Positions 28,051 to 46,714 of a stretch of 64,000 bases of DNA are shown piece after piece. The first letter of the stretch is position 1. Every line of letters starts with the position of its first letter. Source of the stretch: a virus; IMG/VR virus record IMGVR_UViG_3300018962_000001, positions 121,705 through 185,704 of that record; one strand, written 5' to 3'. The notes beneath the pieces are model-generated. The model was not told the origin of the DNA. It saw nothing but the letters and a program-made list of their open reading frames with translations, and searched no databases. The position numbers and the translations under genes were made by a program.

Positions 28051-31000
28051 TTAAATATATCCAGCGGCACGCAGATCGCGCAAAAAGCCTGCCCAGGCTT
28101 CTTCTTGCCGGGCATCAATCATCCGGGCAATTTGATCAAGGGTATAATTGACGCCCTCAATCTGGTAGGTCGGAGCATAGGTGATGGGCGGCAGGTTCAG
28201 CCGGGTCGCCACGGCAGCCAGCGCGGGCGCTGCTGTTTGTGCCCGGAATCGGTCAAAGGTCGCAGCGCCGCCACCAAGCGAACGGTCGAGCAATCCATGC
28301 TCCAGCTCCTGTGTCAATGCGACTAATTGATCCTCCATCGCCGCCCGCAATCGCGCGAGTCGTTCGCGTAACCGATCGACGGGAACGACGACCTCCGGCC
28401 CAGCCTCGCCCAATAAGTAATTGGTACCAGTATGCGCCCCGATCCCGGTCACCGGCTCCCGAATGACGCCACCTGTGGCATACCCAACCCAGCCACCACC
28501 ACGCATCACCGACTGGACCCCAGGCAGATCACGAATATGGCCGTACCGGCGTTTAATATAATTAATCGCGGCGATCAGGTTTTCAATGGGATCATAGATG
28601 TCTCCGGGATTGCCAAGATCCCGTCCGTTCGCATAGCCCAGATCTCCGGTATAGGCACGGGCGGATGCCCGTTTGTTGGCATTAAAGGTTTGCGGAATCG
28701 TTTGAGCCAGGCCGCGCGATGGATACCCCGCGCGAAAATTCGAGTCCCATAGATTGATAGATCGGGGATTCCAGCCTGACTCATACTTGCCAAGAATGGA
28801 CAGCCCCTGAAGCCAATCGCGGGTAACCGCAGCCCCTGCCAGTGCCTCGCTGATCCACGATCGCGCTGGCCCCGGTGTGCCCGGCCAGTACTCGCCACCC
28901 CGTGGGTCCGGCGTGTCTTGAGTCACGCCCCGCAGTTCGCGGAGGAAGGCCGCGAGTTCCAGCTTGGGATCAACCCAATTGCCCCGTTTGTCACTAATCT
29001 GATAGTGGAGGTGATCGACCATTTCCCCGTCGCGGTAGGGCGTATGCCCGACGTTGCCGATGTCATAGCCCCGCTCGATCTGCTGGCCCGCGCGGAAGTT
29101 GGCTGGATCAACGAGGTGGGCATAGTAGTGTTCGCGACCCGATTGCCCGCGAATTTGAATATAGTTTCCACCGAATCCGTTCCAGCCCTGATAGGAAACG
29201 ACGCCGCTCTCCAGTGCTCGGATGATCGTCCCTTCATCGGCGAGAATGTCGATGCCCTCGTGTCTCCCGGTGGTATCAGGACGCGCATCCCCCCACCACG
29301 ATACGATCTCCCGGCTGCCGACCATAAACTCGGCAGCGTCATAGACATCGGTCCCGACCTGGGCATCCTCAAAGGCACGCAGTAAGCCTTCGACCAGCGC
29401 GAGTGCCCACTCTTTCACTTTGCCGAAGATCGCCGTGCCCACACCAGCAAAGGCATCACCAGCAAAGTCGAACGACTCGAATCCCACGGCGCTCAGCCCA
29501 CGATCCAGCACCCACCCCGCACCTTGACTGATCCAGTTAATGACATCGCCGATCGCGTCGCCAATGCCAAGTTCATAGGCCGGGTAGTTCCCCGGTAGCA
29601 ACCCACGCCGCCGCAGGCGCGCGGTCTCCTGATGCGGGAGGACCGTTGAGCCGCGCGGCAACATAACGATTTCCGGTCCCTTTTCTCCCACAATGGCCGG
29701 GCCACCTGGATGGTACCCCCGCCGCGTGCCCCGCGCATATTGGGGAATGGTCGGAAGATTAAAGGTATCGGGAAGCGGCGCGGCAGCACCGAGCTTCTCG
29801 GCAATCCAATTGATCGCGTCGCGGAATTTGTTGACAAAGAACTCAAACCCTTTAATGGCAGCATTAAGTCCCGACGATCCATCCGCCGGGCCGATGGCCG
29901 TGTTTGCCATCTTTTTCATAATGGTGCCGATCTCGTTAGCAGCTCCCACGAACGGGGCGAGAATGGCCTCCTTGATCTCGCTGATTCGGTCGCTCATCCC
30001 TTTCCAGGCGCGATAGCCTCCATTGAGCACGCCATTGCCCCGGTCATCCCAGGTGCCGACAAAATCACGCATCGCGGTTTTGCCACCCTCGACGAGATTC
30101 GCAAAGAGTCCCAGCACGCCAGGGCCACCAACGGTGTACGTTCCCACCAAATTGTTCCGAATAAGATTCGGAAGATTAACGACCAGTTGTGCCACCTGGC
30201 CGATTAAGGAGTCGCCGCTGGTATCACTCAGCCCAATCCACTGCTTCACGGTGCGACTGGTATCGTTGATTAACCCCCAGAATAGCCCAAGGACGCCGCC
30301 GCCGCCGGACGCATAGCGCCCGACCAACTCGCCGATGAGTCGGAAGAATCCATTCGCGAGGCGTTGGATCGTGCCTAACATCGATCCGGCAGCAGAATCC
30401 GATCCGACCCAGGCAATCAGCGCATCGAGGCCTTCATTGACAAGCCAATACAGCCAGCCCAGTACCCCGTTCTGCCCGGACGCATACGTGCCAACCATCC
30501 ATCTGATCGCAGCGAGATAGTCATCCGCAAGCGTGCGGATCAGACCGAGCATCCCCCCCTGTTGGTAGGCTCCGATCCATCGCTCAATATTTGTTAGCGC
30601 GGTATCCACCAGCGTTGCCAGGAGTCCAAGCAGACCGCCGCCGCCGGGAGTCCACGTGCCGACCATCCAACGGATGGTCTGAAGCATGGCATCCGCGAGA
30701 CCCTGGATTTTCGCAAGCCCCCAGTCCCATAAGTTCTGGAACCACCGCACGATCCCGTTGACCATATCGGGAATAATCGAGTGCCCAACCAGATCCACCC
30801 ACAGCTGGTAAAAGGCGTTTTTCACCCCTTCCCACAAGCCAACTGCCAGGCCGATCACCGTGGTCACTGCCCCGGTGAAGATCGATACTACACTGTCAAT
30901 AATCCCCTGGACAAAATCGCCAACCGCTTGCCAAAGCGGCTGCCAATCGCCGGTATAGAATCCGTAGATGATTCCCGCAACAATCCGCACCACCCCGGTG

Positions 31001-34000
31001 ATCACCGTCGCGATTAGTTGAATCACGCCAAGGAAGACCTCAATGATTCCGCCAAGCCCGACGATCACGCCCGGCAGCACCCCGGACAGCAGATTGATGA
31101 TGAATCCCAGGACATAGAGAAACGTCGTTCCCAGAATCGTGCCCACCGTCACCAATACCGCAGCGATACCTCCTAAGATGGGCATGAGCGACCGCAGGGT
31201 ATTGAAAAAGATGGTGACCAGAGGACTCAGCACCTGGAACGCGGTTTGGAGATTCGCCCAGAGGCGTCCGAACGCTAACCCAACCGCTCCCACGGCACGT
31301 TGAAAATCATGAAAGAGCGGTTGCAGGAAGGCGATGAATCGACTCCAGGTCGGCGTGACCGTGGTGTTCCAGTACTGAACAAACTCGGCGACGCGCCCCT
31401 GAATATTGCCCCAGTTCTTCAGCCACGCCACCGTTAACAGCCCGATCACCAGCGCGATCGCGCCAATCGCGAGGGTGACGGGGTTGATCGCGACCGCTAA
31501 GGCTGAGAAGATGGCTGGCCCGGTGCGGAATAGCCCCAGGAGGTTGCTGACAGGATTGGTCAGCATGGTGAGCGGGTTCAATGCCCGCCAGATTGCGCTG
31601 AACACCGGTCCCAGCCGTGATCCCACGGCTGCCAGGACCGGGAAGCGCGTGCCGAGGGCCGTAAATAGGCCCGTAACCGTGTTGACAGGGTGGATTAACA
31701 GTTGGAATGGATTCAGGATTCCGCGCAGCGCAGGGGCTAGGGGACCAAGGTAGGTTGTCACCCCTTGGATTCCAAGATGAATCGCACCGCCAACGCGGAA
31801 GACGGCAAAGGCCGTCCCAATCCCCGCGACGACACTGAGAATCGTCCCGCCATTGGTTTGCAAGAAGGCAAAGAAGGGCTGGATTTCGGCCCGCACCCCT
31901 TGCATCGTCGCCCGCAGATTGGCAAACTCATCGGGGAGTTGACCGAGTCCGCCGAACTCGGATTCCCAATCCACCCGTGCTTCGCCCCCCGCAGGCATCG
32001 GAGGCAGCGGGATGTCGGGAGCCGTCATGCCAAAGAGGGCAGTGACAAATTGGACAACCGCATTGCGGGCTAAGTCGATTCGCTCCTTAGCCGTATCAAT
32101 CGTGGTGCTGAATGATTGCCATGCTTGTTGGCCTTGGGCCAGGCCAGTCGTGATATTGTCGGTGAGCTGCGTGATCGCCTGGGTCGCGTCACCAAAGGTC
32201 GATTGTTGTCCACGAGCCGCTTGATCGGCTGCTTTTTGCGCCTTTTCCTGAATGTTCAGGATCATCTGCTCAATTTCTGAGTACTCTTGTGATCCCTCGG
32301 CATAGCGACTGCGAAGGCCCATCAACAGCTCAAGGGCTTCGTTATATCGTCCTTGATCCGTCAGGAGGCGCGCTTGGGCCTTGATCTGCCGCTCATAGGC
32401 GTTTTCTGCCTTGATCCCCGAACTTGCGATCGAACGATCCCGCTGGGCTTGCAGACGCTCAATCTGCGCCTCGATGTTGAGCCACTCTTTCGATCCCTCG
32501 GCAAAGTGCGACTGTCGCTCCCGCAGCTTCGCAATCGCTCCATCATAATCGCCGGTTGCCTTTTCCAGATTGGCTTGCGCGGCGATCTGTTGATCCATCG
32601 CCTTCGCAGCCTTGCCGGTTGCCTCCTCCTGCAACCGTGCCCGGCGTTCTTCGAGCACCTGGATCTGGCGCAGCGTGTCAAAGTACTCCTTGCTCCCCGG
32701 CTCCAAGCCCGCCAACTTTTCGCGCAAGATGGCGATCTGCCCGTTGGTGTCCTCCAGTTCCAGGTTGTATTTTTCCTGGGCGGTTCCCACCTTGGCAGCA
32801 TCGCGGGCGGCGTCCTCCGCTTGCTGGCGTTGGAGATTGGCGATCTGCTCCATGATGCGGTAGCGCTCTGCCGGATCAGTGGTTCGTTCAAGCTCCTCGT
32901 TAAGCAACGCGATTTTGCCGGGCGTATCCGCAATGGCGAGCTGGTAGTCGAGGAGGGCTTTTCGCTGCCGTTCCTGTTCTTCCGTCGCTTCACGCCGGGC
33001 TTGATTGAGTTCTCGCTCCGCTTCCAGATATTCCAGTGTGCCGGGGGTCAATTCACTTAAGCGTTGCTCTAGGATCGCGGTCTTTTCCGCCGCCGTCGCC
33101 GTTTCGAGGGCATTGCGGCGCTGCGCCTCGGCCAAGGCTTCCGCTTCTTTGCGCGACTTTTCTTCAGCCGCCGCCTGAAGCTGCGCCAACTGGGTCCGCA
33201 GCCGGTATCCTTCTTCAGACTCTTCGCCAACCGCCGCGATCCGGTCGCGCAACATTTGCTGGCGTGTTGCATCATCGGCAATCGCGTATTGATAATCCCA
33301 CTGTGCGTCCGCTAAGCGCTTGAGCCGATCTTCTTCCTTTTTGGTCCCACTTTCGCGTTCATCGGCCAGGCGATGCTCCAGGTCATAGATCTGCGCGAGA
33401 ATCTTGTAGTATTCTTCACTTCCATGCTCAACATTCGCAAGTTCACCGCGCAGGATCGCCAGTTTCCCGGCAGTATCGGCAATATGGAAGTTGTAGTCGC
33501 GCTGGGCTTTCGCGCGGCGGTTGGCTTCCAAGACCGCCTCGCGTTCCCCCGGCGTCATGCCCGGCAGCAGCCCAAGTTTGCGATCTTCATTGATCTGGCG
33601 TTGAATTTGCAGCACCTGCTCCATGAAGCGGAGTTCCCGCTCTTGGAGGCGGTCGGCGGCGGCAAATCCGGCCAAACGGTCGGCGACCACCTGCTGCTGC
33701 TGTTTCAAAATCTCAAGCTGCTGCTGGAGTTGGGTCTTTTGATCGTCTTGGGCCTGTTCCTGGGCCTCCAACATCGCCAGCTGATCGCGCGCGGCACGTT
33801 GTTGCGTAAAGGTGCGTGCGTTGCGCAGGGCACGTTCTGCCGAGCGTGTTGCTTCTTGGAGACGGCGGCGGGCGGCGGGATCATCCAAGGCCCGCAGCTT
33901 CGCTTGCACCTCATCGATCTGTTGGGTAAGAACGGCCTGATTCAACCGCTCTTGAATACGTAGGAAGATGTCGCGGTTTTGTTCGCCGAGGCGCGACTCG

Positions 34001-35694
34001 ATCTGCATCAATGATTCGGCACTGATCCTCCCCGTTTGATTGATGGAGTCGATCGCCTGCGCGACCAGTTGCGTGATCCCCGGATCTCCATTGGTGCCCA
34101 CGGAGATGCGAATCGCTTCCTCAGCACTAATTTTGCCCGCCGTAACCAGCGCCGTCAGCCGATCTTGAACCTCCTCGGCGATCGTCGTCAGTGCGCCAAA
34201 GTCCGAATCGTCCCACTCAAGATAGGCCCGGAGGACCGGACTAAACCACGTGTCAATGGTCGAGAGCGGCCCTTCTCGCGGCGGCGAGAAACCACGCAAG
34301 AACGCTTCGATCCGGCTAGTGATTGCCAGGATTGCCATCTCGACGTAGCTACTGGCTCCTGCTAACATGCCATCGGCGAAGGCTGCAATGCTGTTCACAC
34401 CGCCAAGGAACAGTTCACGCGACAGGTTCTGAATCAGGCGAAGAATGAGTCCACTTAATCCCAGCAGGAGATTCGTAATCTGGGTGGCAGCCGTGCCGAA
34501 ATCGCCGCTAAACAGGGAGATCAAGGCTCCCCGGAGCGGCGCGAGCGCGGCCAGCACCTGCGCTGCAAACTGGCCGTATCCTCCCACGACCCGATCCACA
34601 AAGGCCAGCGCTGGGGCGGTTGCCTGGCTGAATCCGGTTGCCATTGCCTGAACCGTGCTGATAGCGAGGCGCATGCCTGCGGCAATGCCCTGCCCCAGCG
34701 TGGCGGCGGCGGCGAATAACGCCGGGTCTTTCAGTAAATTTTCGAGGCCAACCAACTGCTCTTTGATGACATCAAAGATTGGTGCTCCGAACACGCTGCG
34801 CAGCATGAACCAGCGGTCAGAAATATTCGACAGAATACCGTCCATCGATCGGGCGGCAAGTTGGGCGGCACCGCCGAACTTCTCGGCAAGAATCTCGTTG
34901 AGGGCGGTGAGCGCCTGATCCGCCGTGCCGAGATACGTTCCCTGCGCATCGAACTTGAGTCCCTTCATCTCAAGATCGGAGCGAGTCGCAATCGCAAGCT
35001 CTCGGAGGCGGCGGAAGGCATCGCCGAAGTCACCCGTTCCAACACGAGCAATCGCGAAGGTGACTTGTTCCAATTGGCTGCTTAAATCACGGATCGCCGG
35101 ACGAGTGACGACCGCTGCGTTGGCGACGTTGAGGAGAAATTCTTGCGTGCGCGCGCCAGCAACCTGGAGTTGCCGATCCGCTTCCACCAGCGCGGGCAGA
35201 TCAAACGGGGTTTGCACATTAATCGCCTGCAATTCGGCAAGGCGACTTCGGGCGCGCGCGAGCATCTGCGCTGTCGTATCGCCTTCCTGTCGCAGCAGGG
35301 TCATGTAGGAGATGATGCTGTTTTCGAGTTGCTGGTTGGGACCAACCAGCCCGGAGAGTGCTGCCGAGGCAATCCGGCCTAACTCACGGAATCCAAAGGT
35401 CAACGCGCCCACGCGCGTGATCAGGCCGACCATCCCCCCGCCTAAGACGTTGATCGACGATGACAATCCTGACGAGGTTTGCTGGGCACGGACGAACGTG
35501 TCGCGAAGCACGGAAGCCAGGGTTCGGGCTGACGCGGTAAGTGAACTCATGGATCGCGTGCTCGTCTGCGTGTTGACGTTAAACCCCTGGAGCTGTGATC
35601 CAAGCGCTTGAAGATTTGACCCGATGGCGCGGAGGGCGTTCAGCGCCGACTGGGCATTGCCCGTAAAATTTAAGAGAACCTGAATTTGATTCAC
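28051..35694 (-). CDS. tape measure protein with C-terminal M23 peptidase and lytic transglycosylase (SLT) domains
   Basis: Long helical, coiled-coil and hydrophobic repeat protein; HEGIDI...YYAHL...HLHYQI (M23); YESGWNPRSINLWDSN...SRGLAQTIPQTF (SLT); GTG start after AAGGAGG. Confidence 0.9.
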   Translation of the reverse strand: MNQIQVLLNFTGNAQSALNALRAIGSNLQALGSQLQGFNVNTQTSTRSMSSLTASARTLASVLRDTFVRAQQTSSGLSSSINVLGGGMVGLITRVGALTFGFRELGRIASAALSGLVGPNQQLENSIISYMTLLRQEGDTTAQMLARARSRLAELQAINVQTPFDLPALVEADRQLQVAGARTQEFLLNVANAAVVTRPAIRDLSSQLEQVTFAIARVGTGDFGDAFRRLRELAIATRSDLEMKGLKFDAQGTYLGTADQALTALNEILAEKFGGAAQLAARSMDGILSNISDRWFMLRSVFGAPIFDVIKEQLVGLENLLKDPALFAAAATLGQGIAAGMRLAISTVQAMATGFSQATAPALAFVDRVVGGYGQFAAQVLAALAPLRGALISLFSGDFGTAATQITNLLLGLSGLILRLIQNLSRELFLGGVNSIAAFADGMLAGASSYVEMAILAITSRIEAFLRGFSPPREGPLSTIDTWFSPVLRAYLEWDDSDFGALTTIAEEVQDRLTALVTAGKISAEEAIRISVGTNGDPGITQLVAQAIDSINQTGRISAESLMQIESRLGEQNRDIFLRIQERLNQAVLTQQIDEVQAKLRALDDPAARRRLQEATRSAERALRNARTFTQQRAARDQLAMLEAQEQAQDDQKTQLQQQLEILKQQQQVVADRLAGFAAADRLQERELRFMEQVLQIQRQINEDRKLGLLPGMTPGEREAVLEANRRAKAQRDYNFHIADTAGKLAILRGELANVEHGSEEYYKILAQIYDLEHRLADERESGTKKEEDRLKRLADAQWDYQYAIADDATRQQMLRDRIAAVGEESEEGYRLRTQLAQLQAAAEEKSRKEAEALAEAQRRNALETATAAEKTAILEQRLSELTPGTLEYLEAERELNQARREATEEQERQRKALLDYQLAIADTPGKIALLNEELERTTDPAERYRIMEQIANLQRQQAEDAARDAAKVGTAQEKYNLELEDTNGQIAILREKLAGLEPGSKEYFDTLRQIQVLEERRARLQEEATGKAAKAMDQQIAAQANLEKATGDYDGAIAKLRERQSHFAEGSKEWLNIEAQIERLQAQRDRSIASSGIKAENAYERQIKAQARLLTDQGRYNEALELLMGLRSRYAEGSQEYSEIEQMILNIQEKAQKAADQAARGQQSTFGDATQAITQLTDNITTGLAQGQQAWQSFSTTIDTAKERIDLARNAVVQFVTALFGMTAPDIPLPPMPAGGEARVDWESEFGGLGQLPDEFANLRATMQGVRAEIQPFFAFLQTNGGTILSVVAGIGTAFAVFRVGGAIHLGIQGVTTYLGPLAPALRGILNPFQLLIHPVNTVTGLFTALGTRFPVLAAVGSRLGPVFSAIWRALNPLTMLTNPVSNLLGLFRTGPAIFSALAVAINPVTLAIGAIALVIGLLTVAWLKNWGNIQGRVAEFVQYWNTTVTPTWSRFIAFLQPLFHDFQRAVGAVGLAFGRLWANLQTAFQVLSPLVTIFFNTLRSLMPILGGIAAVLVTVGTILGTTFLYVLGFIINLLSGVLPGVIVGLGGIIEVFLGVIQLIATVITGVVRIVAGIIYGFYTGDWQPLWQAVGDFVQGIIDSVVSIFTGAVTTVIGLAVGLWEGVKNAFYQLWVDLVGHSIIPDMVNGIVRWFQNLWDWGLAKIQGLADAMLQTIRWMVGTWTPGGGGLLGLLATLVDTALTNIERWIGAYQQGGMLGLIRTLADDYLAAIRWMVGTYASGQNGVLGWLYWLVNEGLDALIAWVGSDSAAGSMLGTIQRLANGFFRLIGELVGRYASGGGGVLGLFWGLINDTSRTVKQWIGLSDTSGDSLIGQVAQLVVNLPNLIRNNLVGTYTVGGPGVLGLFANLVEGGKTAMRDFVGTWDDRGNGVLNGGYRAWKGMSDRISEIKEAILAPFVGAANEIGTIMKKMANTAIGPADGSSGLNAAIKGFEFFVNKFRDAINWIAEKLGAAAPLPDTFNLPTIPQYARGTRRGYHPGGPAIVGEKGPEIVMLPRGSTVLPHQETARLRRRGLLPGNYPAYELGIGDAIGDVINWISQGAGWVLDRGLSAVGFESFDFAGDAFAGVGTAIFGKVKEWALALVEGLLRAFEDAQVGTDVYDAAEFMVGSREIVSWWGDARPDTTGRHEGIDILADEGTIIRALESGVVSYQGWNGFGGNYIQIRGQSGREHYYAHLVDPANFRAGQQIERGYDIGNVGHTPYRDGEMVDHLHYQISDKRGNWVDPKLELAAFLRELRGVTQDTPDPRGGEYWPGTPGPARSWISEALAGAAVTRDWLQGLSILGKYESGWNPRSINLWDSNFRAGYPSRGLAQTIPQTFNANKRASARAYTGDLGYANGRDLGNPGDIYDPIENLIAAINYIKRRYGHIRDLPGVQSVMRGGGWVGYATGGVIREPVTGIGAHTGTNYLLGEAGPEVVVPVDRLRERLARLRAAMEDQLVALTQELEHGLLDRSLGGGAATFDRFRAQTAAPALAAVATRLNLPPITYAPTYQIEGVNYTLDQIARMIDARQEEAWAGFLRDLRAAGYI

Positions 35695-35706
35695 GGTTGT
35701 CCCTCC

Positions 35707-35735
35707 TTGCCGAAGGGACGAACGTGATCTACAGT
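35707..35735 (+). promoter_or_regulatory. putative promoter of the stand-alone pentamer-tract RNA
   Basis: TTGCCG-17 nt-TACAGT, placing the predicted start (~35742) just before the tract. Confidence 0.5.
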
Positions 35736-35746
35736 GCGGTGAACGC

Positions 35747-35826
35747 GGCCTGGATCGGCCTGAGACGGCATCGACGGGCAAGGCACGGTTGGGCTATCCG
35801 TGGCTAGGTATGGTTGGGCGTGGCGC
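35747..35826 (+). ncRNA. stand-alone GG(Y)NN pentamer tract (candidate guide RNA)
   Basis: 16 in-phase pentamers: ggcct ggatc ggcct gagac ggcat cgacg ggcaa ggcac ggttg ggcta tccgt ggcta ggtat ggttg ggcgt ggcgc. Confidence 0.65.
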
Positions 35827-35854
35827 AGCACCTCACATGTGTGAGGTGCTGTTT
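35826..35854 (+). terminator. intrinsic terminator ending the stand-alone tract
   Basis: CAGCACCTCAC-ATGT-GTGAGGTGCTG-TTT. Confidence 0.65.
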
Positions 35855-35984
35855 GATTCTTGGGATGCCAACGGTGCCCCATCCGAGCCTCGCACGATAC
35901 GGATCATGTGTCGGATGGGCGAGCACGGGGGAATGGTGGCCCATATAGGAGAAGTCGGGGCAGATGCGCGGACTTCTGCCCCGT

Positions 35985-36013
35985 AGTATAGCAAAGACCA
36001 GCGGCGTCGTCTA
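35985..36013 (-). promoter_or_regulatory. putative promoter for the tape measure/tail operon
   Basis: Minus strand TAGACG-17 nt-TATACT with extended -10 TG; followed by a CGGGGCAGA/TCTGCCCCG hairpin. Confidence 0.5.
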
Positions 36014-36202
36014 GGATGGGTCGGTGGGGGACTCCCACGGGAAGGGAATCCCATTGGCGAGAAAATACTTCCGCCAAAACTCGGTGTCGAAGGGATGGCG
36101 ATCCGGCGGCGGCGGCGTGAGATGGCGCGTCTTAATGGCTGCCGCGATTGCCACCAGCGAACGGTAGATCACGGCCCAGAACAAGCGATCGGCGTTCTTC
36201 AT
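36011..36202 (-). CDS. small hypothetical protein (MKNADRLFW...)
   Basis: AAAGGAGG RBS; 63 aa. Confidence 0.6.
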   Translation of the reverse strand: MKNADRLFWAVIYRSLVAIAAAIKTRHLTPPPPDRHPFDTEFWRKYFLANGIPFPWESPTDPS

Positions 36203-36212
36203 TGTTCCTCCT

Positions 36213-37220
36213 TTAAGGAGCAGTGCGCTCCGCTGCTTCGATGGTGTGAATCCCGGTGAGAAGTTGATAATACGCCAAGCTTCCAGGCTGAAATAAGAGC
36301 AGATAGCCTTGGAGCAACTCTTTCCGCGTGGCACGCGCGGGTTCTAAGGTGATGCGTGCTCGAATCAGCGCCATCCGTTCGTCATCCGTCAACTGCGGAT
36401 CGGCCAGCCGATCTTCAAGCAGCAGGATCTTCTGGACGCGCGCAGCGGCAGCGAGGGCCATTGTGGTCGGCGAGATGATCGAGTCGGAGTCGTCCTCCGG
36501 TGGCGTATAAGGCCGGGGGGCAGCTAATCGGGTGGTTGGCCCCGTCGCCGGACGCAGACGTTGATAAATCTCGACCCACGACAGGCCCAACCGCCGGAGT
36601 GCGAGGATTTCCGCACGCCGGTTCGGCAGATTCTGATAGGCCACCGACTGACGCAGATCCTCCCAGAGCGGCTGAATCTCGCTGAACCACTGCTGACGGC
36701 GGAGAACATCCTGTGGCCCCGGATCAAGCACTCGCACCTCCTCCGGCCAGAAAGCAATCGCCTGATCGATCTGGAGATTAATGAGTCCCAGTGGCACGCC
36801 CGCAGCATCGCACTCAACACCATCTTGATCGATCCACGGCTTGTGCGGTGATCGCCGGATGAGATGGGGTTTCGTTCCCTGGATGACCGGGAAGATCGCC
36901 GGATCGAGTGGGGGGACAAAGGCCGCATGCGACGTGGGATCATCCACGCGGGCCAGATCTGGGATCGTGTGCCCACACCCGGAACAAAACTTCGCACCGG
37001 GTTCGATTCCACGATACCCACAGCGGGTACACTGATTTGCTGCGCGCGCGCGCTGTAGGCACTGATTTGCGAGCAATGTCCGGGACCGAAACTCTGCCAG
37101 ATCAGATCGATAGAGCAGGGTGGTCCGGTAGGCTGCATACAAGGTCGCCATCAGGACTCCTACCTGAACTCCCTCACTCGAAAGATGGAATAGGAGATCC
37201 ACGAACCAATCATTCATCAC
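36213..37220 (-). CDS. protein with N-terminal hydrophobic segment and zinc ribbon
   Basis: CTRCG...GAKFCSGCG; coupled to the upstream HTH gene. Confidence 0.6.
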   Translation of the reverse strand: MMNDWFVDLLFHLSSEGVQVGVLMATLYAAYRTTLLYRSDLAEFRSRTLLANQCLQRARAANQCTRCGYRGIEPGAKFCSGCGHTIPDLARVDDPTSHAAFVPPLDPAIFPVIQGTKPHLIRRSPHKPWIDQDGVECDAAGVPLGLINLQIDQAIAFWPEEVRVLDPGPQDVLRRQQWFSEIQPLWEDLRQSVAYQNLPNRRAEILALRRLGLSWVEIYQRLRPATGPTTRLAAPRPYTPPEDDSDSIISPTTMALAAAARVQKILLLEDRLADPQLTDDERMALIRARITLEPARATRKELLQGYLLLFQPGSLAYYQLLTGIHTIEAAERTAP

Positions 37221-37432
37221 TCCTCCCGTTCCTCCGGCGGCGGCGGCGCGAACAATGCCAGCAACGGCACACCGAGCGCGGCAGCCATTTTGTCAAGCGA
37301 TCCGATCGTTAACGTCTCGACGTGGCGATTATGCCAGGCTTTGCGAACCGTCCCCACCCCCAGATCGGCCCGTCGTGCCAGCTTCGAGATATTTAACGCC
37401 TGGGCGGTGGCGATAACAGCTACTTGAAACAT
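37217..37432 (-). CDS. XRE/Cro-like HTH transcriptional regulator
   Basis: LNISKLARRADLGVGTVRKAW...IGSLDKMAAALGVPLLALF; AAGGAGG RBS. Confidence 0.85.
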   Translation of the reverse strand: MFQVAVIATAQALNISKLARRADLGVGTVRKAWHNRHVETLTIGSLDKMAAALGVPLLALFAPPPPEEREE

Positions 37433-37472
37433 TCGATCCTCCTTCCTCGTGTGGAGCGCGCATCATTGTGCA

Positions 37473-37558
37473 TTGACAGACCGCATATCTATGTTATACT
37501 GTCATTATAATGTATAGTATATAGAGTATAGCATACAAAACCTATGCTACATTATACT
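37473..37558 (+). promoter_or_regulatory. AT-rich control region between divergent genes, with promoter(s) and inverted repeats
   Basis: TTGACA-16 nt-TATACT (37473-37500); second TATACT at 37553; inverted repeats TATAATGTA/TACATTATA and TAGCATA/TATGCTA. Confidence 0.65.
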
Positions 37559-37605
37559 CCCACTCCCGGCAGAATGCTAGACATTCGACAGATGAATTCG
37601 GACAT

Positions 37606-38006
37606 GGTTGGGTGTGGATTGGCTAGGCTAGGAGAGGCACGGTGAGGTCTGGCACGGATGACTCTGCACTGAGTCCAATCCCTTCGGGGTATCTGGGTAT
37701 GGCATGGGAACGGTTGGGTCCGGTAAGGATCGGCTGGGAGCGGCAAGGTGTGGCAAGGTCGGGCTGGGCCGGGCAACGCAGGGCACGGATGGCGGTGTAT
37801 TCCGCCACCATTCCCCACCAGGGGAATACGAGGATGGCTGGGCGCGGGCATGGCGAGGCGTGGCAAGTCGAGGCTGGGCCGCGCTAGGTGCGGCAAGGCA
37901 CGGATGATCGTGGATTCGATCACCATCCCTCACACGAGGGTTATTTGGCTCGGATCGGTCAGGATTGGCTAGGTCAGGTGGGGCTGGGTGAGGCTTGGTT
38001 TGGTAC
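37606..38006 (+). repeat. array 1: four GG(Y)NN pentamer tracts separated by hairpin spacers (candidate guide-RNA array)
   Basis: Tracts at 37606-37655, 37696-37786, 37836-37901 and 37947-38006 with GG every 5 nt; the first three end GGCAC-GGAT-5-bp hairpin-(A)CCA followed by a second hairpin. Confidence 0.85.
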
Positions 38007-38016
38007 AAGGAGCAGT

Positions 38017-38655
38017 ATGATGGCATCCAACATGATTCAAGCGACGGTTGAGATCCAGGGAACGAAGCCACTGTTGTGGCACGCCTTTACGCCCGACAGC
38101 ATTCCGGCGGACGGCAAGAAGGAAAAGACCGGGGTGGCGGGTAACGATCCCCAGGAATGGCGGCGATCCTTCCTGGCGGATCACGAAGGCCGCTTGTTTG
38201 TGAACCCGGAATACATCTTCGGCTGCCTGCGCGATGGCGCGCGACACACCAAAAAAGGCCGTGGATCGATTATGTCGAATGTGGCGGCAACGCTTCAGAT
38301 CGTGGACGAGCGGATCTACACCGATCGCTATTTCCCACGCAACGGCGCGACTGGCCCCTTTGATCCGGCATCGGCGGATCGCCCGCCGATCGAGATCACC
38401 GAGCCGGTTTATCTCGACGTGCGATCGGTGAAGAACCCGTCCACGAAAGGTCGGAACGTCCGCTACCGGGTGGCGGCGAGTCCAGGGTGGCGGGCGAGCT
38501 TTACGATTCTGTGGGACAAAACCATTGTCAGCCGCACCGAGATGGAGGCGGTCATTACTGATGCGGGCCGACTCGTCGGGCTGGGTGATGGCCGATCGAT
38601 CGGCTTTGGTCGATTCATGGTGGTGCCAGGGTCCATCACGTTTACCGAGGTCTAG
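38017..38655 (+). CDS. solo RAMP / Cas7-like RNA-binding protein (Vipr-like)
   Basis: N-terminal strand ATVEIQGTKPLLWH, FVNPEYIFGCLRDGA helix, WRASFTILWD strand and C-terminal glycine-rich loop AGRLVGLGDGRSIGFGRF, all typical of RAMP/Cas7; AAGGAG RBS; no other cas genes in the window. Confidence 0.75.
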   Translation: MMASNMIQATVEIQGTKPLLWHAFTPDSIPADGKKEKTGVAGNDPQEWRRSFLADHEGRLFVNPEYIFGCLRDGARHTKKGRGSIMSNVAATLQIVDERIYTDRYFPRNGATGPFDPASADRPPIEITEPVYLDVRSVKNPSTKGRNVRYRVAASPGWRASFTILWDKTIVSRTEMEAVITDAGRLVGLGDGRSIGFGRFMVVPGSITFTEV

Positions 38656-38665
38656 AGTCTTTCGA

Positions 38666-38724
38666 GGCGAGGCATGGTGAGGTGAGGTATGGGGTGGTTG
38701 GCGAGGTACGGCCTGGCAAGGAGT
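38666..38724 (+). repeat. GG(Y)NN pentamer tract between the RAMP and HNH genes
   Basis: ggcga ggcat ggtga ggtga ggtat ggggt ggtt ggcga ggtac ggcct ggcaa ggagt, running into the HNH RBS. Confidence 0.75.
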
Positions 38725-38730
38725 TTGAAC

Positions 38731-39048
38731 ATGGGCATGAAACGACAACCTCCGAAGATCTGGGAAGGAACCCGCAAACGAATATTCGAACGCGATCGGG
38801 GGATCTGCCAATCTCCCCTGGCTCCACCCCTGTGTCAAGGGAAACGCGGCGAGTTAACGCTTGCCACGGCGCATATCGACCACCGGCGAAGCGGTCGGTT
38901 TGGCACGAATGCGGATAGCAACCTCCGGGTGCTCTGCCGCGCGTGCCACGTCCTCCGCGACGATCCGCGCCACCGAGGCATGATCGGCGGAGCCTTGCGC
39001 GACGGGATCATCCCTCCCCATTGGCGGGAGCTAACCTGGGGAGAGTAG
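38731..39048 (+). CDS. HNH endonuclease
   Basis: W...RKRIFERDRGICQ...C...AHIDHRRS...GTNADSNLRVLCRACH; AAGGAG RBS 7 nt upstream. Confidence 0.85.
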   Translation: MGMKRQPPKIWEGTRKRIFERDRGICQSPLAPPLCQGKRGELTLATAHIDHRRSGRFGTNADSNLRVLCRACHVLRDDPRHRGMIGGALRDGIIPPHWRELTWGE

Positions 39049-39270
39049 ATGGGTCGTCCAAGGCACAGAACGGGTGCCGTGCGCCAGCTGCCGTGGCGCA
39101 GAGTCGTCACGGCAGCACGTGATGGCGGAATCATGGGGGCGGTGCTGGGAGGGGTGTTCTTTGGCCCTTCTGGCGCGCTGGTGACCAGCTTAGTAGGAGC
39201 GGTGGCAGCGGCGGCGGTTCGCTGGTATCGAAGCGTCAAGGCGAGAGGTCGCATGGGAAGGCATGGATGA
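39049..39270 (+). CDS. small membrane protein with glycine-zipper-like helices
   Basis: GGIMGAVLGGVFFGPSGALVTSLVGAVAAAAVRW; starts immediately after the HNH stop. Confidence 0.45.
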   Translation: MGRPRHRTGAVRQLPWRRVVTAARDGGIMGAVLGGVFFGPSGALVTSLVGAVAAAAVRWYRSVKARGRMGRHG

Positions 39271-39626
39271 TCGTGGATCGATCCCACTTCTCGGTTGGGC
39301 AAGCGAGGGTCTGGCAAGGACAGGCAAGGCTTGGCTCGGCAGGGTCGGGTTCGGCTGGGCAAGGATACTGGTGTTTCCAGTACCATCGATTGGGTGTGGC
39401 GGGGCGGTGGTAGGGTGGGGCTTGGCTTGGTCCGGCACGGCAGGGATGATGGTGTCTCCATTCCACCTCATGGTCGGGCGAGGAGGGGCGAGGCAGGGCT
39501 AGGCGGGGCAAGGTGAGGCCCGGCAAGGTTCGGCACCGATCCTCGTGTCATCGAGGCCACCACGGGGTATGCCGAGGCGTGGTAAGGTGAGGCTAGGCTG
39601 CGGTGAGGTCCGGCGAGACGGGGAAC
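39240..39626 (+). repeat. array 2: GG(Y)NN pentamer tracts separated by hairpin spacers (candidate guide-RNA array)
   Basis: Tracts at 39240-39264 (degenerate), 39293-39362, 39393-39443, 39472-39536 and 39566-39626; spacers (G/C)GAT-5-bp stem-TG..T loop-stem-(A)CCA at 39265, 39363, 39444 and 39537. Confidence 0.85.
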
Positions 39627-39654
39627 AGGACGGGTGCTGGTCACCCGTCCTGTT
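39624..39654. terminator. 13-bp hairpin between converging transcripts (array 2 and tail chaperone)
   Basis: AACAGGACGGGTG-CTGGT-CACCCGTCCTGTT. Confidence 0.65.
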
Positions 39655-40090
39655 GATTCTCCGGTGCCTGGTCGGCGAACTCATCAACCTTGTTGGCACG
39701 TTTGTAGGCTTGCCAGAAGGCTGACTGCATCGGCGGCGGCGGCGGCGGGGCGAATGGATCTTGATAGACCTTCTCAAACGGCGGCAGCGCCTGCGGTTTC
39801 TTGCCACCGAACGCGGGTCCAAGGACGCGGGCCAGGGCGGTTTCGAGGGCCATAATCTGACTCATTTGCTGGTCCCAGCGATTCCGCGCGACCTGCTGGT
39901 ACTCGCGATGGAGTCGCCGCCACCGCCAGCCCAGCACCTCCTCCAGGGGCAAATGCCGGGTTGCCACGATCTCGGTCACCATGTCGTCGATCAGGGTGCC
40001 AATGGCTCCTATGATGTCGAAGGCGAGTTGACCACCGTTGCGCCAGCTGGTGGTGGAGTCTTGGCCGGTTGTTGATTGCGCTTGCCCCAC
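39641..40090 (-). CDS. tail assembly chaperone frameshift extension (gpT-like)
   Basis: Overlaps the chaperone gene in the -1 frame and is open from the slippery site at 40120-40126. Confidence 0.65.
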   Translation of the reverse strand: MGQAQSTTGQDSTTSWRNGGQLAFDIIGAIGTLIDDMVTEIVATRHLPLEEVLGWRWRRLHREYQQVARNRWDQQMSQIMALETALARVLGPAFGGKKPQALPPFEKVYQDPFAPPPPPPMQSAFWQAYKRANKVDEFADQAPENQQDG

Positions 40091-40674
40091 AGCTCCACCG
40101 CTTGCCGGGCGAGCGTGAAGTTTCCCAGTGCCGCTGCCAAGTCTTCGGACTGCCGGATGCGCCAGGCCAGTGCCTTCACAATCGGCGCGACCTTTACATC
40201 GTCCTCCGACAGCTGCCGGAAAAACAACTCCGCCTCTTTCTTCTGGTGATCCTTGCCACCGAACAACACGATCGCGGCAATCCGCAAAAAGTGTTGCACA
40301 TTGATGGTTGCAAGCAAGGCGAAGATCGTGGCTTCAAATGGCTGCGCCGACTGGACCTTGCCGTTCACCAGCGCTGTAAACGCACTGCCCAGCTGCCCGG
40401 CGAGGTATTTTTCAGCCCGCAACGACACGTCCCCAATCACATTACACAGTGCCAAGATCGCGTGAATATCGGGTTCTCCGATCTCAAAGACTCGTCCGCC
40501 AAAGGTGACTCGATAGTCCACCACTTCCTCGACCACCGCCTCCGTAGGCCCGTCCTCGGCAGCTGGTGGAAACAAGGGTTCATCGGGCGCAGCGATCGGT
40601 TCCGATCCCCAGAGCGATTGGTCGTTGGGCAAGGGAGCCTGGCCCCCCAGGTCGAAGCTATTGCCGTCTGCCAT
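40009..40674 (-). CDS. tail assembly chaperone (gpG-like)
   Basis: Located between tail tube and tape measure genes; in-frame G GGA AAC heptamer near the 3' end. Confidence 0.7.
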   Translation of the reverse strand: MADGNSFDLGGQAPLPNDQSLWGSEPIAAPDEPLFPPAAEDGPTEAVVEEVVDYRVTFGGRVFEIGEPDIHAILALCNVIGDVSLRAEKYLAGQLGSAFTALVNGKVQSAQPFEATIFALLATINVQHFLRIAAIVLFGGKDHQKKEAELFFRQLSEDDVKVAPIVKALAWRIRQSEDLAAALGNFTLARQAVELWGKRNQQPAKTPPPAGATVVNSPSTS

Positions 40675-45862: not shown

Positions 45863-46714
45863 CTACAGGGAATACATGCCTGTCTGGTGCAGGCGTGCGC
45901 GCTGTTCATCGGTCGCTTGCTGCGAGGCCGATGGCTGCGCACTCCCATCTGGTTTCGGGGGGCGCGGATTACCGGGCGGGATTGGGGTCATGAGTCGCTG
46001 GGCAAGCGATCGTGCTTGTTTCGCCCACTGGACCCGCTGCTCCAGGGCAGCCGCTCCGGGGTCGAGCACTTTCACTTCAGTCGGCCATTCACCCGTTTCC
46101 GTGTCGATTAATTCATTGACCATCGCGGCATACCGCTCGGCCTGGGCACGCGCCGTGGCGAGTTCGCCCTGCGCTTGCTCCTGCTGCACGGTCAGCTGGG
46201 TCGTCAGTTGCGTGGTCTGGGCTTCCAACTCGGTGACTCGGCGTTTGTGATCACCGATCTCGCGTTCGCGTTTATCGGCGAGCTTTTGCCACTGTCGTTG
46301 TTTTTCAGCTTCCTCCTCCTCGGCTTTGCGCGCGGCCTCCGCGGCCTCCGCTGCTGCCGTCGCCGCCGCCGCCGCCGCTTCCTCCTGGGCCACCCGTTCC
46401 TGGGTTTCGCGGTCCAGAATTTGTTGCCGCAAGCGCGCCGCTTCCGCCTCCGCATCCTGCTTGGCCTTGTTCACTTCGTCAAACCGGGCCTTGGGGATCA
46501 TATGGTCCGCCGGGGCAGGCGTTGGTGCGGGGCTGGGCGTTGGTGCAGGATCGGTCCCCGTAGGCGCAGGATCACCGTCACCCGGCGCAGGATCAGTCGT
46601 GAATGACCGGGTAAGGAGGAATAACGACCACAGCGCCAATTGTGGGAGCATGAATGTGCCAAACATACAGGAATCTCCGGTACGATCCGTTTCGAGTTTT
46701 TCGTGCAACGCCAC
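45863..46714 (-). CDS. capsid scaffolding protein (start uncertain)
   Basis: Pro-rich N-terminus, MIPKARFDEVN motif, long coiled coil. Confidence 0.75.
   Translation of the reverse strand: MALHEKLETDRTGDSCMFGTFMLPQLALWSLFLLTRSFTTDPAPGDGDPAPTGTDPAPTPSPAPTPAPADHMIPKARFDEVNKAKQDAEAEAARLRQQILDRETQERVAQEEAAAAAATAAAEAAEAARKAEEEEAEKQRQWQKLADKREREIGDHKRRVTELEAQTTQLTTQLTVQQEQAQGELATARAQAERYAAMVNELIDTETGEWPTEVKVLDPGAAALEQRVQWAKQARSLAQRLMTPIPPGNPRPPKPDGSAQPSASQQATDEQRARLHQTGMYSL

Follow-up and report, generated by a model that had tools for sequence, protein, structure and literature searches.

A phage-borne VIPR locus with an HNH accessory gene and guides that match ImmA/IrrE-type genes

We analysed a 64,000-nt window (positions 121,705 to 185,704 of the IMG/VR virus record IMGVR_UViG_3300018962_000001) that lies within the 204,685-bp contig of a jumbo phage; all positions are given in window numbering. 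The window contains a locus, built around the gene at 38017-38655, that we assign with near certainty to VIPR, a CRISPR-related, RNA-guided, DNA-targeting protein system first described in 2026, HNH accessory included (10.64898/2026.04.26.720920). Two guides of its array, guides 3 and 8, very probably match genes of the ImmA/IrrE family, judging by sequence comparison. VIPR and its HNH accessory are already published; the guide-to-IrrE matches are new here and were not foreseen in an earlier reading of this DNA from its letters alone (the sequence-only reading). ImmA/IrrE targets are not mentioned in the available parts of two VIPR texts (10.64898/2026.04.26.720920, 10.64898/2026.10.15.759431), although they may appear in data S3 of the former.

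The 212-residue product of the gene ends in a C-terminal glycine loop, which the sequence-only reading had picked out when it proposed a RAMP/Cas7 fold. The protein has no Pfam match. Its predicted model (pLDDT 88.8) found Csm3/Cas7 chains as the top matches in Foldseek (E 8.5e-9), bearing out the proposed fold, and its only clear solved relative is the SUSP1 Vipr protein (PDB 36pp; E 8.4e-6 with the single sequence, 4.5e-9 with a profile), in agreement with the VIPR identification that the same reading had offered. The SUSP1 protein is distant in sequence (E 1e-5 to 1e-9). Its residues R138, D177 and R179, which are RNA contacts (10.64898/2026.04.26.720927), align with R151, D191 and R193 here, whereas its W178 is replaced by glycine. 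The protein has 2,031 relatives among 2,277 candidates. The protein is a stand-alone RAMP with an RRM core, a thumb and a G-loop, and is homologous to Vipr. On the predicted model, the RAMP fold and G-loop would be common to this protein and the Cas7/Csm3 proteins of class 1 CRISPR systems. Those systems, however, combine a CRISPR array with further cas genes, neither of which was found here, and the code of the present guides is non-contiguous. No CRISPR-type period occurs in the window and no Cas family was detected among 83 scanned open reading frames (ORFs; 137 candidates in the contig) or among 8 local ORFs, as the sequence-only reading had anticipated. Within the same scan the locus is minimal, consisting of vipr and one accessory gene (vap).

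Tandem YNNGG tracts, about 9-16 units long and hypervariable at the NN dinucleotides, neighbour vipr on its own strand. A phase-aware search of both strands of the full contig found ten GGYNN tracts at a score of at least 10 (strong tracts), every one on the + strand within 35747-39600 and none elsewhere; order-3 Markov genomes gave 0.2 tracts per genome, of the lowest score only. An eleventh tract (~39240-39269, tract 7 in the order of Table 1) is decayed and still retains its array tail. The count of eleven same-strand tracts claimed from the letters stands, one of them being decayed, with two corrections: tract 1 (35747-35826) lies 1.8 kb apart from the others, beyond a divergent HTH gene and a zinc-ribbon gene, and several tracts slip register by one base. 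Among 126 unit starts, 100 are GGY, 16 GGA, 1 GGG and 9 other, and all 16 kinds of NN dinucleotide are present. Internal degeneracy of units is frequent in VIPR tracts (10.64898/2026.04.26.720920). Seven tracts carry a conserved, structured 3' tail made up of GAT, a 5-6-bp stem, a loop beginning with TG, and then CCA; the seven stems have six different sequences. Tracts 1 and 11 close with terminator-like hairpins, that of tract 11 being strong, and tracts 5 and 6 lead into ribosome-binding sites. A sigma-70-like promoter with an extended -10 element (11/12 consensus bases) is predicted on the + strand at 37473-37500, upstream of tract 2. Rfam gave no match near the gathering score at the locus, and no hammerhead. 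The guide tails end in CCA, and a PolyA_pol-family nucleotidyltransferase is encoded in the same phage. Two internal similarities were also seen. The first five NN pairs of guides 4 (37847-37871) and 11 (39566-39590) are identical, which suggests a guide duplication or a common target family. The terminal hairpins at 35853-35860 and 39653-39660 have near-identical T-rich ends, and on this sequence likeness we suggest that tract 1 and its terminator were copied from an array end.

To derive target patterns, the NN pairs of each guide were joined with one wildcard, following the published 1-nt-skip rule. In antisense, with its pairs taken as codon positions 1 and 2, guide 3 spells RxRFTLAHELGH, which we take to be an ImmA/IrrE motif. 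In viral contigs, 11 units of guide 3 gave three exact matches (2 distinct), each of them in frame within a PF06114 gene, and 13 units gave one exact match in metagenomes, again in a PF06114 gene. This metagenome match is the best site of guide 3 and scores 28/30 without the tail units. In 167 Chloroflexales genomes, a 10-unit core of guide 3 matched 25 times, compared to 2 matches of reversed controls; 8 of these matches are IrrE-type genes, 16 are oligoendopeptidase F-type genes (one Pfam-checked) and 1 is another gene. On 30 loci chosen by PF06114 alone, guide 3 reached a z-score of 10.6 at skip 1, a level attained by 0 of 200 shuffles, and stayed below 2 at skips 0, 2 and 3. The other nine guides (z at most 1.9) and 95 guides from relatives (z at most 3.2) served as controls on PF06114-picked loci.

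Guide 8, in the same antisense reading, spells DRLDNFWF, presumably a motif of HTH-IrrE fusions. Its seed matched 27 times, and 11 of these matches (about 7 distinct, 8 confirmed as PF06114) fall within HTH-IrrE-type genes and keep their frame. An off-seed His unit of the guide fits all 11 of these matches and only 1 of the 16 others, and the best site scores 25/30. For the Chloroflexales we used 31 loci, of which 30 came from a protein search with one guide-8-matched gene; on these loci guide 8 reached z 7.0 at skip 1 only, with 18-21/28 at the motif. That guides 3 and 8 score on real genes solely at the 1-nt skip upholds the non-contiguous NN code proposed from the letters. The locus also shows that reading a guide as codon positions 1 and 2 can name its target family even when the target genome is not to hand.

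Several observations weigh against these assignments. The IrrE family was first spotted by eye, and the tests came afterwards. The guide 3 core also fits oligoendopeptidase F-type genes, which make up 16 of the 25 Chloroflexales matches, though without the three preceding units. Neither guide 3 (14 units) nor guide 8 (12 units) has a site within 3 mismatches in the 167 Chloroflexales genomes, and the best Chloroflexales IrrE-gene scores are only 23/30 and 21/28, respectively. For guide 8, the loci chosen solely by Pfam yielded z 0.6. Finally, guides 1, 2, 4, 5 and 9 have no supported target in public collections: seeds of the same length from guides 1 and 5 gave 25 matches each with no recurring in-frame family, guide 2 gave 9 matches against 16 for controls, guide 4 gave 3 in unrelated genes against 1, and guide 9 gave 30 against 43 for reversed controls. 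Guide 10 shows a weak link, by sequence matching, to DUF2188-type genes, which account for 5 of its 36 seed matches (4 checked and confirmed by Pfam; best 21/26); DUF2188 was found in 1 of 167 Chloroflexales genomes. No self-target of at least 80% was found in the own contig at skips 0-3 for tracts at least 9 units long, the contig has no IrrE gene, and the matches of the own guides to 103 fetched loci were at chance level. Among readings that were tried and set aside, a putative CARF gene family made up 8 of the 30 guide 9 matches, with no enrichment and failing off-seed units. The remaining candidates were post hoc readings and proved unsupported or weak: a nuclease (D/E)xK motif for guides 4 and 11, a tyrosine-recombinase motif plus one extra unit for guide 1, and, with a gap, DUF2188 for guide 10.

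The accessory gene downstream of vipr encodes a 105-residue HNH protein. We collected 101 related loci (59 from genomes and 42 viral; not dereplicated, with at least six near-duplicate pairs), and a homologue of the HNH gene adjoins or follows the Vipr gene in 92 of them. Tracts lie on the strand of the Vipr gene in 89 of the 101 loci, as expected if tracts accompany homologues of the gene, and on the opposite strand in 7. Merged tract counts were zero in 12 loci, one in 55, two in 25, three in 7 and four in 2; the same merging rule gives nine tracts here. The HNH residues D50, H51, N64 and H73 are invariant across 93 aligned sequences and are kept here. A quick tree places the Vipr protein within the HNH-linked group, its own position there being unresolved. 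The sequence-only reading had thought that the HNH partner might mark a distinct variant. This does not hold, since an HNH Vap is listed among types II, III and VII in the legend of fig. S21 of the first description (10.64898/2026.04.26.720920). That legend, with the text on nuclease types, points to VIPR type III for the present locus. Like type III, it combines Vipr with one HNH accessory gene, GGY/NN guides and no self-targets. Types III and V are the nuclease types, which are enriched in defence islands and target viruses, the island setting being an enrichment and not a requirement (10.64898/2026.04.26.720920). The present locus, in contrast, lies in the tail operon of a 205-kb phage, with 10-11 tracts and matches to IrrE genes; neither the defence-island setting nor guides against viruses were seen. 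It resembles the type II systems of SUSP1 and P. fulva in its phage-borne multi-guide array with a conserved 3' tail, in the 1-nt skip on codon position 3 and in the equivalents of R138, D177 and R179 (10.64898/2026.04.26.720927, 10.64898/2026.10.15.759431). Type II, however, has the DNA-binding Vap1 where a nuclease is found here, and the SUSP1 tail is a pseudoknot and not a hairpin followed by CCA.

We consider it probable that this HNH-bearing VIPR, through its two IrrE-matching guides, silences or cuts resident prophages and other mobile elements at their stress-switch and toxin-antitoxin genes during infection. The promoter at 37473 would drive a transcript, and cleavage of it at the hairpin-CCA tails would yield the guides. 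In SUSP1, one Vipr subunit binds each GGYNN unit and the NN pairs with DNA, every third base being skipped (10.64898/2026.04.26.720927); by analogy, Vipr here would coat the guide in the same manner. The HNH protein, by its linkage and conservation, may then be recruited to nick or cut the DNA. The skipped base would be codon position 3 of the peptidase catalytic motif in guides 3 and 8, and escape by synonymous change would therefore be ineffective. ImmA cleaves repressors and so leads to excision of prophages and integrative and conjugative elements (10.1101/2022.04.27.489752), and guides of the P. fulva prophage VIPR match prophage switch regulators (10.64898/2026.04.26.720920). Blocking ImmA/IrrE-type genes could thus prevent the damage-triggered excision of competitors, and the system most likely serves to halt or destroy resident elements once infection damages DNA. 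Two points tell against this proposal: silencing an antitoxin gene could free the toxin, so that cutting fits better than repression, and the target genes may lie in host defence islands as well as on mobile elements. The experiments in the available parts of the VIPR papers deal with SUSP1 and P. fulva, whose systems are of the repression type. With a 212-residue Vipr, a 105-residue HNH protein and readable targets, RNA-guided cutting by a nuclease VIPR becomes directly testable.

The main rival is counter-defence, in which the guides would be aimed at host immune regulators such as CapP-like IrrE peptidases, HigB/HTH-IrrE modules and DUF2188 operons. CapP applies the same repressor cleavage to defence operons, some of which include DUF2188, a family known from CapP/CapH operons (10.1101/2022.04.27.489752). 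The best guide 3 site adjoins a Schlafen/AlbA_2 gene, the HTH-IrrE genes of the guide 8 type sit after HigB-like toxins, guide 10 leans towards DUF2188, IrrE genes are present in 39 of 61 Chloroflexales genomes, and an RNA ligase and a PolyA_pol-family protein are encoded by the phage as well. Against this stand the low score of guide 10 and the rarity of DUF2188 in Chloroflexales, the counts for guides 9 and 4 given above, and the origin of several IrrE matches in viral contigs. We regard counter-defence as possible but rather unlikely. We hold with the same reserve that a nuclease-armed VIPR would here form a programmable counter-defence library that cuts or silences DNA-damage-sensing immune switches of the host, its catalytic-motif codons letting one guide cover a gene family. 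If true, such a library would run opposite to the published pattern, where it is the host that employs nuclease VIPRs against viruses. Should the IrrE targets prove to be defence regulators, this would be RNA-guided counter-defence by a phage.

It is less likely still that the array is decaying or acts by repression only, with most guides dead and a non-cutting HNH protein. One tract is decayed, 26 of the 126 units are non-GGY, one-base slips affect several tracts and most guides have no targets. The vipr and HNH frames are nevertheless intact with conserved residues, the promoter is near consensus, the seven tails keep their 5-6-bp stem in six different sequences, and the degeneracy is of a kind frequent in published VIPRs. 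Selfish RNA-guided homing, in which HNH cuts insert-free sister phages at the chaperone/tape-measure junction, is improbable: it would suit the antisense insertion beside the tape-measure start and the recurrence of this site described below, but for none of the guides do matches to the two flanks, joined here as a presumed empty site, exceed those of shuffles, and guides 3 and 8 aim at genes absent from the own phage.

Table 1 Features of the VIPR locus and its flanks (window numbering).
Feature	Position	Strand	Remark
Very long gene, presumed tape measure	28051..35694	-	Size and position; no named family match
Guide tract 1, 16 units	35747..35826	+	Stand-alone, just upstream of presumed tape-measure gene (other strand); no target found
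Terminator-like hairpin after tract 1	35825..35860	+
Zinc-ribbon ORF (335 aa, counted from its first start codon)	36213..37220	-	Weak Pfam match below cut-off; passenger
Cro/C1-type HTH gene	37217..37432	-	PF13443, E 1.6e-5; divergent from VIPR promoter
Sigma-70-like promoter	37473..37500	+	Predicted start of array transcript
Guide tract 2 with hairpin-CCA tail	37606..37678	+	No target found
Guide tract 3 with tail	37696..37811	+	In register 37707-37791; ImmA/IrrE HExxH-motif codons, antisense reading
Guide tract 4 with tail	37836..37926	+	In register 37847-37906; no target found
Guide tract 5	37947..38006	+	Up to vipr ribosome-binding site; no target found
vipr, 212 aa	38017..38655	+	RAMP/RRM fold with G-loop
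Guide tract 6	38666..38724	+	Between vipr and HNH gene; one register slip; searched in own contig and fetched loci only
HNH nuclease gene, 105 aa	38731..39048	+	D50, H51, N64, H73
Glycine-zipper-like small ORF, 73 aa	39049..39270	+	Family match below cut-off; end overlaps decayed tract 7
Decayed tract 7	39240..39289	+	Tail intact
Guide tract 8 with tail	39293..39386	+	Motif before HExxH, HTH-IrrE fusion genes beside HigB-like toxins, antisense reading
Guide tract 9 with tail	39393..39466	+	No supported target
Guide tract 10 with tail	39472..39561	+	Weak DUF2188 link
Guide tract 11 with terminal hairpin	39566..39660	+	One register slip
Two ORFs in tail-chaperone position	39641..40674	-	Position alone; no family match

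The cassette is inserted antisense between the two ORFs at 39641..40674, putative tail-chaperone genes by their position, and a gene of more than 2,500 codons that is presumably the tape measure, given its size and position and without a named match. The site beside the tape measure appears to recur, because 10 of the 18 long ORFs that were tested next to viral relatives encode tape-measure proteins. VIPRs with an HNH gene occur commonly in phages and often adjoin the tape-measure gene. Unrelated phages carry VIPR-HNH loci near tape-measure genes in antisense (L066, L069, L075, L087) and in sense (L070, L073, L074, L076, L085, L093). The 73-residue glycine-zipper-like ORF was not found in any of the 101 related loci.

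The contig encodes a terminase, a major head protein, DnaB, tRNAs, an RNA ligase and a PolyA_pol-family protein, and no integrase was detected in the scanned ORFs. The host is likely a Chloroflexales bacterium, because the closest named relatives of DnaB are from Chloroflexota, with Herpetosiphonaceae first. Annotated phages gave no tblastn match, and a search with the gene in tail-tube position found no sister phages. The PolyA_pol-family nucleotidyltransferase, the RNA ligase and a JAB/ThiF pair (L364:13915-15390, L366:507-1163, L366:4644-5786) lie outside the window. The 45863-46714 protein of the phage, in the scaffold position, shares 39% identity in its C-terminal part with residues 145-185 (41 aa) of the zinc-ribbon ORF (E 1.9e-4).

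Further Vipr loci were seen beyond this phage. Six divergent viral loci (L097-L102) are without an HNH gene and fall outside the HNH-linked group; one of them has a 29-unit tract. One Oscillochloris genome (G001; L282, L288, L290, L291) contains four Vipr genes of the same family as the gene here. With the 1-nt skip, a guide of one VIPR phage (L071:5622) fits a presumed portal gene in a related VIPR phage (L062:1135) at 27/32.

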